Shown here: piece by piece, positions 17,672-20,299 of the stretch | Numbering within the stretch: the stretch's first letter is position 1 | How the letters are laid out: every line of letters begins with the position of its first letter | Source: Pseudomonadota bacterium | GTDB taxonomy: Bacteria > Pseudomonadota > Alphaproteobacteria > SHVP01 | Assembly: GCA_027622715.1 (NCBI GenBank) | Contig: JAQBYN010000014.1 | Location: forward strand, 15,272-79,271 | DNA: 64,000 nt | Reading direction: 5' to 3' | Position numbers and translations under genes: made by a program | The notes under the pieces: model-generated | Seen by the model: only the letters and a program-made list of their open reading frames with translations | Database searches by the model: none | Told to the model about the DNA's origin: nothing

Positions 17672-19348
17672 CTACATCATGCCGCCCATGCCACCCATAC
17701 CGCCCATGCCACCCATACCGCCCATGCCACCCATATCCGGCGGCATCGCGGGGCCTGCACCCTTTTTCTCGGGGTGGTCGGCGATCATGGCTTCGGTGGT
17801 GATCATTAGACCCGCGATCGACGCGGCGTCCTCAAGCGCAATCCGAACGACTTTCGCCGGGTCGATAATCCCTGCTTTGATCATATCGACGTACTCTTCG
17901 GTCTGGGCGTTGAAGCCACGCTTGTTGTCTTTGCCTTCGAGCAGCTTGCCTACGACGACCGGGCCGCTGACGCCTGCGTTTTCTACGAGCTGGCGCAAGG
18001 GCTGTTGCAGCGCGCGCTGCACAATCTTAATACCCATCTGCTCGTCGTGATTTTCGCCAACGAGCTTCTCGAGCACGCGGCCGGCATAGAGCAGCGTGAC
18101 GCCGCCGCCGGGGACAACCCCCTCTTCCACCGCAGCGCGGGTGGCATGCAACGCGTCGTCAACGCGATCCTTGCGCTCCTTGACCTCAACCTCGGTCACG
18201 CCGCCAACGCGGATCACTGCAACGCCGCCTGCCAATTTCGCGAGACGCTCCTGCAGCTTTTCCTTGTCGTATTCGGACGTGGTGTCCTCGACCTGGGCGC
18301 GGATCTGGTTGCACCGGTCTTGAATGTCTTTCTTCTTCCCGGCACCTTCGATGATGGTCGTGTCTTCCTTGGTGATCGACACGGTTTTTGCCCGGCCGAG
18401 CATCTCGATCGTCACGTTCTCGAGTTTGATCCCGAGGTCCTCGGAGATCACGGTGCCGCCCGTCAGGATGGCGATGTCTTCCAGCTGGGCCTTGCGTCGG
18501 TCGCCGAAGCCGGGCGCCTTCACCGCAGCGACCTTGAGGCCGCCGCGCAGCTTGTTGACGACCAATGTCGCGAGCGCTTCGCCCTCAATGTCCTCGGCAA
18601 CGATCACCAGCGGCTTGCCGGTCTGTACGATTGCCTCAAGCACCGGCAGCAACGGCTGCAGATTGGAGAGCTTCTTTTCGTGGAGGAGGATGTAGGCGTC
18701 CCCGAGTTCGGCCAGCATCTTTTCGGCGTTGGTCACGAAATACGGCGACAGATAGCCGCGGTCGAACTGCATGCCCTCGACGACGTCCAGTTCAGTGGCC
18801 ATGCCTTTGGCCTCTTCAACGGTGATAACGCCTTCTTTGCCGACCCGCTGCATGGCTTCGGCGATAAAGTCGCCGATCTCGCTCTCGCCGTTGGCGGATA
18901 TCGTTCCGACTTGGGCGACTTCGGCCTCAGTCTTGACCGGTTTGGCGACCTTCTTGATTTCCGCGACGACCGCTATCACGGCTTTGTCGATACCGCGTTT
19001 CAGGTCCATCGGGTTCATCCCGGCGGCGACCGACTTCGCGCCTTCGGTGACGATACACTGGGCCAAAACCGTCGCCGTCGTGGTGCCGTCGCCCGCCTCG
19101 TCGCTGGTCCGGGTGGCCACTTCGCGCAGCATCTGCGCGCCCATGTTCTCGAATTTGTCTTCGAGTTCGATCTCTTTGGCGACCGACACGCCGTCCTTGC
19201 TGATACGCGGAGAACCGTAGGACTTGTCGAGGATGACATTGCGCCCCTTCGGCCCCAGCGTGACGCGCACTGCATTGGCGAGGATGTTAACTCCCCTGAT
19301 CATGCTGTCGCGTGCATCACGGTCGAATTTTACGTCTTTCGCTGCCAT
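17672..19348 (-). CDS. groL: Chaperonin GroEL (60 kDa)
   Basis: [38 protein letters not shown]... is full-length GroEL. C-terminal GGM repeat tail ([19 protein letters not shown]). Start at internal Met of ORF 17672..19420. Confidence 0.95.
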
Positions 19349-19427
19349 GTCTTTCAACTCCGGTCGGTTTGTTATTTGGCCTGATGAGTGGCTGGGCGAC
19401 GATGTCGACCCCTCCCCCATCCGGTAT

Positions 19428-19454
19428 CCGTTAGCACTCAGAACCTCCGAGTGC
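19428..19454. promoter_or_regulatory. CIRCE (HrcA operator) near-consensus inverted repeat upstream of groEL
   Basis: TTAGCACTC-agaacctcc-GAGTGCCAA: 9-nt arms, 9-nt spacer, one mismatch to TTAGCACTC-N9-GAGTGCTAA. It lies about 80 bp upstream of the groEL start. Confidence 0.7.
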
Positions 19455-19595
19455 CAAAGCCTGGGGCGGGATATAGTCCCCTGGCGCGCAGTGTCAAGGA
19501 TTCGCGAATTCGCTAAATATCACTTGACAAGATCGAGTGCTAAATCATTGAAATCATTCTGTAATTGACTTAAGCCGCCGAACCCCCAACATGCT

Positions 19596-19892
19596 GTGAC
19601 AGTGACCACTTTATTGAGGTGCTACATGCCAAGCAGCATTGATCTAGAGTTAAAGGGGTATCGGCTCACTACCGCCGAGATCTTCTACCACCTCCCCGAC
19701 TACCCAGCCCTCCTGCAGACCTTCGTGATCCAGAAGTACGATTTAGCGCCCGGATTCCCGGTAATCTCTGACTTCCTCACCTACTGGGAGAACGAGATTG
19801 AGGCGCGTATCCACTCGGTGCGCCTCGCAAACGTGGATCTCATCGGGGCCGGCGACGTCCGCTACGCCAACGGTCGGTTCACCCTTCACTAG
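19596..19892 (+). CDS. Usg-like small protein (PF06233-like); start possibly the second Met at 19626
   Basis: 98-aa ORF ...LKGYRLTTAEIFYHLPDYPALLQTFVIQKYDLAPGFPVISDFLTYWENEIEARIHSVRLANVDLIGAGDVRYANGRFTLH. It resembles alphaproteobacterial Usg proteins as I remember them (GY.LTTAEI.Y..PD.P.LLQT..WQ.YDLAP.FP.L..FL.FW...L.G.LHSV...H). Composition is unlike a GC-shadow ORF. Opposite strand to the flanking groES and groEL. Confidence 0.5.
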   Translation: MTVTTLLRCYMPSSIDLELKGYRLTTAEIFYHLPDYPALLQTFVIQKYDLAPGFPVISDFLTYWENEIEARIHSVRLANVDLIGAGDVRYANGRFTLH

Positions 19893-19899
19893 TGTCGGG

Positions 19900-20187
19900 T
19901 TAGCCGAGGATCCCCATGATGTCGGACTCTTTCATGATCAAGAGGTCCTCGCCTTCGACTTTGACGTCGGTCCCCGACCATTTGCCGAATAGGACGCGAT
20001 CGCCCTTTTTGACATCCAGCTTAATGACCTTGCCACTCTCGTCGCGACCGCCGGGTCCGACAGCGATGATTTCGCCTTCTTGGGGTTTTTCCTGAACGGT
20101 GTCGGGAATGATGATTCCGCCCTTGGTTTTCTGTTCGGAATCGATCCGTTTGACGATGACGCGATCTTGTAGCGGCCTGATCTTCAT
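19900..20187 (-). CDS. groS: Co-chaperonin GroES (10 kDa)
   Basis: [46 protein letters not shown]... is full-length GroES, 95 aa. Confidence 0.95.
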
Positions 20188-20228
20188 CTGGGACTGCCTC
20201 TATGGAGCGGTGGTTGCCTGGAATTAGG

Positions 20229-20255
20229 GTTAGCACTCTCTATCGAGAGTGCTGG
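20229..20255. promoter_or_regulatory. Degenerate CIRCE-like inverted repeat upstream of groES
   Basis: TTAGCACTC-tctatcga-GAGTGCTGG: the left arm is consensus, the spacer is 8 rather than 9 nt, and the right arm ends GG instead of AA. It is equivalently AGCACTCTC-tatc-GAGAGTGCT, a 9-bp perfect IR. It lies about 45 bp upstream of the groES start. Confidence 0.5.
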
Positions 20256-20299
20256 CTTGATAGCGGTTTCAATCCGGCCGAGTCAACCGGGGCATGCGA

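Follow-up and report, generated by a model that had tools for sequence, protein, structure and literature searches.

A split groES/usg/groEL arrangement in one uncultured alphaproteobacterial group is a modest variant of a well-known heat-shock system

Results

In the window – by which we mean the whole 64-kb stretch of DNA analysed here – groES and groEL are separated by a gap of 551 nt (19349-19899) that holds usg on the opposite strand (Table 1). The original prediction had put this separation at 552 bp; the separation is real, and the prediction as a whole is correct apart from coordinate offsets of 1-3 bp. In a bicistronic groESL operon groES directly precedes groEL on one strand, with a short spacer and no other gene between them; the length of the gap and the presence of usg set the locus apart from such an operon. 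Both chaperonin genes belong to their families by virtue of full-length Pfam domains, to which GroEL adds the GGM-repeat tail typical of housekeeping GroEL. A scan of the open reading frames of the window shows the neighbourhood of the locus to be core chromosomal; neither hrcA nor rpoH was found among the 30 largest of them.

Table 1. Features of the locus, in positions of the window
Feature	Position	Strand	Description
Intrinsic terminator hairpin, 3′ of groEL	17617-17647	-	14 bp stem and T-run
groEL	17672-19348	-	558 aa, (GGM)n C-terminal tail; Pfam Cpn60_TCP1, E=7e-82, 276 bits
groEL 5′ leader	19349-19430	-	82 nt; SD GGAG 19358-19361; proximal ~25 nt conserved in the clade
CIRCE1	19431-19457		TTAGCACTC-N9-GAGTGCCAA; 1 mismatch; 82 nt from groEL ATG
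Candidate groEL promoter, RpoH (sigma-32) type	19471-19498	-	CTTGAC (19498-19493)-N15-ACTATAT (19477-19471); -10 lies 13 nt upstream of CIRCE1
CIRCE3	19517-19543		weak CIRCE-like repeat ATATCACTT-N9-GAGTGCTAA; 3 mismatches; between the divergent groEL and usg candidate promoters
Candidate usg promoter	19565-19592	+	TTGACT (19565-19570)-N16-CAACAT (19587-19592); proposed from conservation only
usg	19626-19892	+	88 aa (start almost certain), Usg family PF06233; SD GAGG 19616-19619
usg/groES tail-to-tail junction	19893-19899		7 nt here, 19-26 nt in relatives; sequence not conserved, without terminator
groES	19900-20187	-	95 aa; Pfam Cpn10, E=3e-36, 123.6 bits
groES 5′ leader	20188-20229	-	42 nt
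CIRCE2	20230-20255		TTAGCACTC-N8-GAGTGCTGG; 2 mismatches; 42 nt from groES ATG
Candidate groES promoter	20258-20287	-	GTTGAC (20287-20282)-N17-GCTATCA (20264-20258); -10 lies 2 nt from CIRCE2
hflX	20300-21616	-	upstream neighbour of groES throughout the split clade
hfq	21635-21895	-	with hflX, upstream neighbour of groES throughout the split clade

The gene order in the clade to which the window belongs runs as follows: hfq-hflX; groES, preceded by a candidate promoter and CIRCE2; usg on the opposite strand; groEL, preceded by CIRCE3, a candidate promoter and CIRCE1; and an inositol monophosphatase gene. This order thus contains two copies of the promoter-operator module. This split order, together with the hflX-hfq and inositol monophosphatase flanks, occurs in the window's MAG, in near-identical contigs, in L006, L007, L008 and L086, and on five further metagenome contigs, one of them labelled marine; the clade comprises at least six sequence lineages on 10 independent contigs. 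We reject the possibility of an assembly artefact, given that independent assemblies agree on the order and that it recurs unchanged in lineages whose Usg is 68-100% identical to that of the window.

The Usg family takes its name from the 'upstream gene' of the Caulobacter crescentus trpFBA operon. The open reading frame in the gap had been taken for a genuine member of this family rather than a GC-shadow, and a search with the Pfam model bears this out: the PF06233 match spans positions 2-80 of the 80-position profile and scores 114.6 bits (cut-off 27; E=2.2e-33), and each of the 101 homologues in the database carries PF06233. The gene is under purifying selection, with dN/dS of 0.04-0.19 among five clade members between which dS is at least 1, that is, with synonymous sites saturated. 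Of the reading frame first proposed (19596-19892, 98 aa) the stop stands and the start does not: translation almost certainly begins at the ATG at 19626, because homologues are 87-90 aa long, the SD is conserved and the sequence 5′ of it is not, and public gene calls agree. In its full-length match to the model, its family-typical size and the presence of the invariant motifs (GYRLTTAEIxYHLPD, LQ, FLxxW and HSV) the protein resembles other members of the family; what sets it apart is the context of its gene, which here, as in many related genomes, is groESL and CIRCE instead of trp genes. An AlphaFold2 model of Usg (pLDDT 81) found no match in the PDB at E < 0.25 using Foldseek. The composition of usg is unremarkable (GC3 of 0.78 versus 0.70-0.78 in neighbouring genes).

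Three CIRCE-like repeats are present when the locus is compared with the consensus TTAGCACTC-N9-GAGTGCTAA; in shuffled windows, 0.01 matches to the N9 pattern and 0.00 to the N8 pattern are expected. CIRCE1 and CIRCE2 each lie directly downstream of a conserved -10 element and upstream of a chaperone start codon. CIRCE1 had been described as a near-consensus element at 19428-19454: the element and its N9 spacer were correctly recognised, and only the position needed amendment (Table 1). Within the clade its arms either do not vary or vary with compensation (7/9 positions invariant in the left arm and 9/9 in the right), whereas the spacer is free to vary (2/9); in L007 and L008 it is a perfect palindrome, TTGGCACTC-N9-GAGTGCCAA.

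CIRCE2, earlier placed at 20229-20255 and thus slightly off, is likewise real and conserved. It forms a 9-bp perfect stem (AGCACTCTC/GAGAGTGCT) closing a 4-nt variable loop (RNA hairpin z = -3.3), and its spacer is N8, as had been claimed, in the window, L006-L008, L090, L092 and L093. Because L086, the most divergent and deepest member of the clade, keeps N9 at this site (TTGGCACTC-ggggtgcca-GAGTGCTGG), the 8-nt spacer is, judged by the sequences, a derived one-base loss. Among 79 other CIRCE matches with at most 3 mismatches in the L001-L089 loci the spacer is 9 nt, one N6 excepted, and our search of the literature found no data on binding of HrcA to a CIRCE with a spacer other than 9. We regard these elements as putative operators at which HrcA is predicted to bind, a prediction that bears especially on the N8 element.

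The third and weaker element, CIRCE3, had been overlooked in the original prediction. It has 2 mismatches in L086, L090 and L092, and the block around it (19518-19553) is conserved, 32/36 positions being invariant.

A generic, strict sigma-70 promoter scan of 17300-20600 returned 0 sites; the promoters are accordingly proposed on the strength of phylogenetic footprinting and of similarity to the RpoH consensus. The candidate groEL promoter, which is invariant in five lineages, matches the Sinorhizobium meliloti RpoH1 consensus CTTGAA-N15-16-CCTATAT (quoted in PMC4843759) at 11/13 positions with a spacing that fits. The candidate groES promoter, also invariant in five lineages, is a weaker fit (9/13, its N17 being one base too long). 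That of usg shows, across five lineages, an invariant -35, a spacing fixed at 16 and a conserved -10 pattern, CAnnAT. Synonymous sites in usg are saturated in the clade, yet the promoter-like elements of groEL and groES and the usg -35 are invariant and the arms of all three CIRCE elements conserved, while CIRCE spacers and flanks vary. From these patterns we infer the probable activity of the candidate promoters and the likely transcript ends.

The absence of a terminator between groES and the Usg-like reading frame, noted in the original prediction, extends to the rest of the gap: no terminator-like site was found between the two genes or anywhere else in it. Folding of the usg/groES junction revealed nothing unusual on either strand (z = -0.8 and +0.6). 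An Rfam search in evalue mode (17000-22500 and 17560-17720) identified no known RNA family in the gap and returned only sub-threshold matches; those to ncS54 and suhB/mmgR, far below gathering scores, are all explained by the hairpin of the groEL terminator. Given that no terminator separates groES, the antisense usg and groEL, some read-through into groEL may occur. Such co-transcription is not needed, because groEL has a clade-invariant RpoH-type candidate promoter of its own, close upstream of its CIRCE.

Comparison with 77 other alphaproteobacterial Usg loci from outside the clade showed that 38 of them have what we term the standard order: groEL(-) groES(-), 227-492 bp, usg(+). Here the groES-groEL operon is intact and usg diverges from it, and the two share a regulatory region with one N9 CIRCE 29-124 nt upstream of groES; the P0015 loci have the same layout. 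The comparison of groES-groEL spacing that had been suggested alongside the original prediction gave spacers of ~42-212 bp in the standard loci versus 551 here. Among the loci sampled, usg lies between groES and groEL only in the clade of the window, and the linkage of usg to groESL takes three local arrangements – divergent, co-directional and intercalated.

The standard module reads CTTGAC-N16-CCTAGAT-2nt-CIRCE, with a second inverted repeat, the equivalent of CIRCE3, just 5′ of the -35. The groES module of the window shares the 2-nt junction between -10 and CIRCE, and the groEL module has the upstream repeat as well and likewise lies next to usg. GroEL identity is 87-100% within the split clade versus 72-79% to the usg-linked GroEL of standard loci. 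A separate observation concerns GroES: the protein of the window is without the short basic C-terminal tail (..KKAA) that is found on many usg-linked GroES proteins of standard loci.

Discussion

The split groES/usg/groEL arrangement of this uncultured alphaproteobacterial group is a modest, real variant of a well-known system. Its anatomy is established, the state is a derived one, all of the motifs are conserved, and usg is a coding gene. The system in question is the groESL operon under the control of RpoH (sigma-32) and HrcA/CIRCE, as found in Agrobacterium tumefaciens, Bradyrhizobium japonicum, Rhizobium leguminosarum, S. meliloti and Mesorhizobium loti. The locus resembles these operons in having a CIRCE in the leader, downstream of an RpoH-type candidate promoter (CTTGAC-N15-ACTATAT), and in its divergent neighbour usg, which in M. 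loti is heat-induced. It differs from them in a gene order that is no longer that of a bicistronic operon: each of the two genes has a promoter-CIRCE module to itself, a gene on the opposite strand lies between groES and groEL, and the CIRCE of groES has a spacer of 8 nt.

A different parallel is offered by stand-alone groEL paralogues with their own CIRCE, such as groEL2 of cyanobacteria, Mycobacterium and Myxococcus. Genes of this kind have no directly preceding groES, are provided with their own CIRCE/HrcA site and rely on GroES in trans (PMC5406781); the groEL of the window likewise lacks a directly preceding groES and has its own putative CIRCE. The genomes in which the paralogues occur, however, keep a canonical groES-groEL1 operon, the stand-alone gene being an extra paralogue elsewhere, whereas in the window the only local groES and groEL are the separated ones, 551 bp apart and in an order that is fixed in the clade.

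A central issue is how such a state came about. We consider it probable (roughly 70%) that a widespread alphaproteobacterial heat-shock 'divergon' was rearranged, specifically in this clade, into two separately promoted units co-regulated by RpoH and HrcA, by way of tandem duplication and reciprocal loss. In the ancestral state usg and groES-groEL would have stood head-to-head about one regulatory region which, in the direction of groESL, comprised an upstream CIRCE-like repeat, an RpoH-type promoter with its -10 abutting a consensus CIRCE, the leader, groES and groEL. The changes in the clade would then amount to a shift of groES with respect to usg and the regulatory region, and to the doubling of the promoter-CIRCE module. 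The simplest route would be a tandem duplication of the segment comprising usg, the regulatory region and groES, after which the outer copy of usg and the inner copy of groES would have been lost.

Duplication followed by reciprocal loss is the likeliest origin of the arrangement. It predicts that groES should lie tail-to-tail with usg, that groES should have the tight -10/CIRCE junction without the upstream repeat, and that groEL should have the full regulatory region beside usg. The two modules share functional motifs only, with neither residual similarity nor a pseudogene remnant as proof of duplication. No remnant of groES is detectable in the 82-nt groEL leader, which, compared with standard leaders and groES-groEL spacers, is too diverged to align; nor was a remnant of usg found upstream of groES, where the groES -35 follows the hflX stop codon after only 12 nt. 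Functionally, groES and groEL would be separate transcription units whose stoichiometry is held in trans by a like RpoH-type promoter and HrcA/CIRCE, and usg – heat-induced in Mesorhizobium – would stay wired to the same control region.

Of the three readings that accompanied the original prediction, the closest is that of a gene inserted into the groESL operon: a gene does lie between groES and groEL, and groEL does appear to have its own CIRCE-controlled promoter. What does not hold is the history. Invasion of an intact operon by usg and its upstream region, acquired either horizontally or from another part of the genome, would yield the observed gene order in one step, but usg is already the head-to-head neighbour of groESL, with a common CIRCE-bearing regulatory region, in roughly half of the alphaproteobacterial loci sampled (38/77), and the element order on the groEL side is that of the standard groES side. 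Add to this the unremarkable GC3 and the lack of mobile-element features, and such an invasion is highly improbable. It is also rather unlikely that groES and groEL are still one unit, transcribed by read-through across the antisense usg, with CIRCE1 and its conserved surroundings serving as an operator or roadblock inside the unit, or else in mRNA processing or stability. Such a transcript would meet neither a terminator-like site nor unusual structure between the groES stop and groEL, the usg-groES junction is just 7-26 nt in all clade members, and CIRCE1 would make a strong hairpin in the RNA (leader fold z = -2.4). Yet a clade-invariant -35/-10 pair with RpoH-consensus spacing, in the orientation of groEL, lies 13 nt upstream of CIRCE1, and the region upstream of groEL matches the standard groESL promoter region element by element. 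Head-on transcription of usg would, moreover, interfere with read-through, and an untranslated antisense stretch of 550 nt would be a likely target of Rho termination.

A further alternative is that the window holds an accessory or specialised copy, its split tolerated because it is redundant, while a canonical bicistronic groESL elsewhere does the housekeeping. Multiple groESL copies are common in alphaproteobacteria – M. loti has five groESL operons (PMC3989490) – and in a survey of 4,861 genomes the stand-alone groEL (834 genes) and groES (435 genes) came mostly from multi-copy genomes (PMC5406781). Against this stand the canonical length and (GGM)n tail of GroEL, strong purifying selection on both genes (groES dN/dS 0.07-0.14 within the clade), the core chromosomal neighbourhood, and a synteny that makes the locus an orthologue of usg-linked groESL in other alphaproteobacteria, one of which (L043) also has an Inositol_P gene 3′ of groEL. 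No second groES or groEL is present within the 64-kb window, which again counts against redundancy, and we judge an accessory role to be unlikely.

Rearrangement of the divergon by duplication and reciprocal loss remains our preferred reading, and its interest lies in what has been taken apart. groES and groEL are among the most invariant of bacterial gene pairs, and their co-transcription is usually credited with securing the correct 7:14 subunit ratio. A stably uncoupled pair, each gene with its own copy of the promoter-operator, would amount to a natural experiment as to whether regulon-level control is enough for the ratio. The clade would be a case of an operon dismantled by duplication and reciprocal loss without loss of regulation, and the conserved N8 CIRCE could be used to probe the strictness of HrcA with regard to half-site spacing. 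More tentatively, and with some doubt, we raise the possibility that members of the clade have only this groES and groEL, balanced purely in trans by the duplicated RpoH/HrcA modules, and that Usg is a functional partner of the chaperonin. In the single-groEL genomes of the survey groES was always found directly upstream, in one operon (PMC5406781); were the pair indeed single, the clade would be a natural exception to this rule.

For the Usg family, the findings point to a tie with the chaperonin heat-shock locus that spans many alphaproteobacteria, with adjacency in about half of the sampled loci and a CIRCE-like repeat that is shared or its own. The only link between usg and chaperonins that we found in the literature is a heat-shock table for M. 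loti, with no paper on usg between groES and groEL or on a usg-groESL divergon. In that table the Usg family protein msl2390, numbered near groES (mlr2393) and groEL (mlr2394), is one of the genes most strongly induced by heat (M=5.54 versus 5.79 for groEL; PMC3989490). This induction adds to the tie, and the three observations together provide a concrete functional lead for a family without a known role. If Usg is a heat-shock partner within the RpoH/HrcA regulon, this would explain why usg has stayed glued to groESL through three arrangements.

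Results

Gene content and gene order

Both groES and groEL are genuine, with matches to the Cpn10 and Cpn60 profiles, and lie 551 nt apart, close to the 552 bp of the original prediction. The plus-strand ORF in the gap belongs to the Usg family (PF06233, scoring 114.6 bits where the cut-off is 27), as was also proposed, but probably not with 98 aa from a start at 19596: translation most likely begins with the ATG at 19626 and yields 88 aa. Usg homologues are 87-90 aa long, the Shine-Dalgarno sequence GAGG (19616-19619) is invariant in relatives while the surroundings of the GTG at 19596 vary, and the ATG is also chosen in public gene calls. 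No terminator-like site was found anywhere in the groES-groEL gap, in agreement with the claim that none separates groES from usg, and the folding of the 7-nt usg/groES junction is not unusual.

The window's order is inositol monophosphatase (-), groEL (-), usg (+), groES (-), hflX (-), hfq (-). It recurs in several independent assemblies, including contig JAQCIN010000002.1 of metagenome-assembled genome GCA_027593465.1, and the genes around it belong to the core chromosome of alphaproteobacteria (dusB, ntrC, ntrY, ntrX, trkA, trkH, hfq and hflX; also metG, the pyruvate dehydrogenase complex, eno, pyrG and tpiA). The dusB-to-hflX string is conserved in alphaproteobacteria; here it is intact (dusB, ntrC, ntrY, ntrX, trkA, trkH, a class-IV aminotransferase gene, hfq, hflX; 21635-33076, -). 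Where usg separates groES from groEL (the split clade), groES is the gene immediately downstream of hflX, 112 bp away.

With an alignment of 32 Usg homologues, 80 loci were retrieved from species-representative genomes; tblastn then placed groES, groEL, hflX and hfq in each. Outside the window's clade, usg stands head-to-head with an intact groES-groEL operon in 38 of 77 loci, labelled Acetobacteraceae, Elioraea, Stellaceae, Geminicoccaceae, Dongiaceae, Kiloniellaceae, various Rhodospirillales and unclassified Alphaproteobacteria. These divergent loci have 227-492 bp between groES and usg, a single CIRCE with a 9-nt spacer (N9) 29-124 nt upstream of groES, and a groES-groEL spacer of ~42-212 nt, against which the window's 551 nt is, as expected, unusual. 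In one locus (L024, 648-2999) usg, groES and groEL are co-directional, a third arrangement, with 196 bp holding a promoter and CIRCE between usg and groES; in four loci usg lies 2.7-3.9 kb from groES. Among fetched loci only L006, L007 and L008 (Usg 84% and 73% identical to that of the window) show the window's order. It is also found in L086 (68%), while a relative at 61% has the standard divergent order. When the conserved block next to usg served as query against metagenome contigs, five more contigs came up, one labelled marine, all with the split order. That order is stable over no fewer than six sequence lineages, in which Usg identity is 100, 94, 84/83, 78, 73 and 68%. Since relatives at 68-100% identity are split and outside loci are not, the intercalated order is a derived character, conserved in one uncultured alphaproteobacterial clade.

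Promoters and CIRCE elements

Within the clade usg evolves under strong purifying selection, with dN/dS of 0.04-0.19 and dS of at least 1; its synonymous sites are saturated, so that invariant non-coding positions, taken here from five-way alignments of clade members, are evidence of constraint. Of the 13 positions in the S. meliloti RpoH1 consensus (CTTGAA-N15-16-CCTATAT, as quoted in PMC4843759), the candidate groEL promoter matches 11 and is correctly spaced; the candidate groES promoter is a weaker match (9/13, N17). CIRCE1 lies 13 nt downstream of the former and CIRCE2 2 nt downstream of the latter. Both elements had been predicted, at coordinates 1-3 bp from those found; by chance the window should contain 0.01 matches to the N9 pattern and 0.00 to the N8 pattern. 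The arms of CIRCE1 are conserved around a variable spacer, and in L007 and L008 both arms are altered so that the palindrome is perfect. A weaker repeat absent from the original prediction, CIRCE3, lies between the groEL and usg promoters; its mismatches fall to two in clade members L086, L090 and L092.

Features of the groES-usg-groEL locus and related repeats
Feature	Coordinates	Strand	Details
groEL	17672-19348	-	558 aa; Cpn60 E=7e-82; canonical GGM tail
CIRCE1	19431-19457		near-consensus, N9, 1 mismatch
Candidate groEL promoter	19498-19471	-	CTTGAC (19498-19493), N15, ACTATAT (19477-19471); invariant
CIRCE3	19517-19543		3 mismatches
Conserved block with CIRCE3	19518-19553		32/36 nt invariant
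Candidate usg promoter	19565-19592	+	TTGACT (19565-19570), N16, CAnnAT (19587-19592); usg Shine-Dalgarno next
usg	19626-19892	+	88 aa from ATG 19626; PF06233
groES	19900-20187	-	95 aa; Cpn10 E=3e-36
CIRCE2	20230-20255		N8, 2 mismatches
Candidate groES promoter	20287-20258	-	GTTGAC (20287-20282), N17, GCTATCA (20264-20258); invariant
CIRCE-like repeat before usg	L059 ~4863-4889; L085 ~4864-4890; L087 ~211-237

The 8-nt spacer reported for the groES element is real. CIRCE-like matches with at most three mismatches in loci L001-L089 comprise 79 with N9, one with N6 and eight with N8, and all eight are the groES element of the split clade; metagenome contigs add three more. L086, the deepest clade member, has N9 at this position with the same right arm (GAGTGCTGG), which indicates that the spacer lost one base, from N9 to N8, once the genes had been rearranged. 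The N8 form has persisted since then, its perfect stem of 9 bp closing a variable loop of 4 nt. A literature search for CIRCE elements with spacers other than 9 nt turned up nothing.

Other features of the window

One probable pseudogene is a short-chain dehydrogenase gene (15971-16765, +): an in-frame stop takes the catalytic Tyr position of the YxxxK motif (..FGANV*GASKAF..), and independent assemblies (L002, L003) show the same split, called as two ORFs of 153 and 94 aa. Sub-threshold Rfam matches to ncS54 (22 bits) and suhB/mmgR (20.5 bits; gathering score 41) in the stretch from groEL to the inositol monophosphatase gene (17605-17679, -) are explained by the strong groEL terminator hairpin (17617-17647) and do not argue for an sRNA.

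Discussion

What the window carries is a structurally new version of the known chaperonin locus under RpoH/HrcA-CIRCE control; the sequence observation stands, and its earlier interpretation was partly right. Most likely, judging from the sequence, groES and groEL form separate transcription units, each with a predicted RpoH-type promoter and repressed through its own putative CIRCE, so that coordination would operate at the level of the regulon rather than the operon. Read-through from groES over antisense usg into groEL, with which the missing terminator is consistent, may coexist with the internal promoter. Heat-dependent cleavage of groESL mRNA between the two genes is reported for Agrobacterium tumefaciens. 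In M. loti heat shock induced groEL but not groES of the mlr2393-mlr2394 operon (PMC3989490), which shows that alphaproteobacteria can already uncouple the mRNA levels of the two genes.

How could two modules of promoter and CIRCE have come about? Standard loci, compared along the groES-transcribed strand, have a common layout: a second inverted repeat (TTAGCAsyC-N9-GAsTGCTGC-like) directly ahead of the -35, then CTTGAC-N16-CCTAGAT, 2 nt and CIRCE. The window's groES module shares the tight -10/CIRCE junction but lacks the upstream repeat, since only 12 nt separate the end of hflX from the -35; the groEL module has that repeat and still borders usg. These complementary ancestral features argue that the module was doubled. 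The most economical route would be a tandem duplication of usg, regulatory region and groES, after which the outer usg and inner groES copies were lost, a course of events that accounts for the observed order, the tail-to-tail groES/usg junction and the differing make-up of the modules. No remnants of such a duplication remain, and the modules cannot be aligned outside functional motifs. Usg-linked GroES of many standard loci has a short extra basic tail (..KKAA) that split-clade GroES (95 aa, ending ..IMGILG, as in the window, or ..VLA) lacks; speculatively, this is a consequence of the rearrangement, perhaps a breakpoint scar.

Of the 38 divergent loci, at least 16 have this second repeat with no more than four mismatches to CIRCE, mostly at a distance of 62-65 bp from the first; it could be a second HrcA site or a usg operator. 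Its forms in usg-linked groESL loci are GCAGCACTC-N9-GAGTGCTAA and, more diverged, TTAGCAGCC-N9-GACTGCTGC. It occurs in many of loci L009-L085 (for example L020, L027, L045 and L068), immediately 5′ of the -35, leaving the promoter bracketed by two repeats; CIRCE3 is the window's counterpart.

The Usg family is itself tied to the heat-shock locus. It adjoins groESL in three different local arrangements, and in L059, L085 and L087 a CIRCE-like repeat (TTAGCACTC-N9-GGCTGCTAA) precedes usg, ~137 nt (137-138) from the ATG in the first two and 266 nt in the third. No groES lies within 5 kb of usg in L059 and L085, and none was found near it in L087, whose contig ends 476 nt before usg. This suggests that usg has its own HrcA-type operator. 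Under heat shock in M. loti the Usg protein gene msl2390, numbered near groES mlr2393 and groEL mlr2394, was among the most induced on microarrays (M=5.54; groEL M=5.79; PMC3989490). The AlphaFold2 model of Usg (pLDDT 81) has no significant fold match in the PDB. A related palindrome, TTGGCACTC-N9-(G/A)AGCGCTAA, lies ~210-240 nt upstream of usg in L036, L048, L061 and L065, fronting a quinone-oxidoreductase-like gene divergent from usg; it may belong to another regulator or be a CIRCE that has diverged.

Across 4,861 surveyed genomes, those with a single groEL always had groES directly upstream, and stand-alone groEL or groES occurred mainly in multi-copy genomes (PMC5406781). Chaperonin copy number therefore decides how unusual the split clade is; within the 64-kb window there is no second groESL. 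As it stands the variant is moderately interesting, and its interest would grow if this were the only chaperonin pair in these genomes, or if Usg acted with the chaperonin system.
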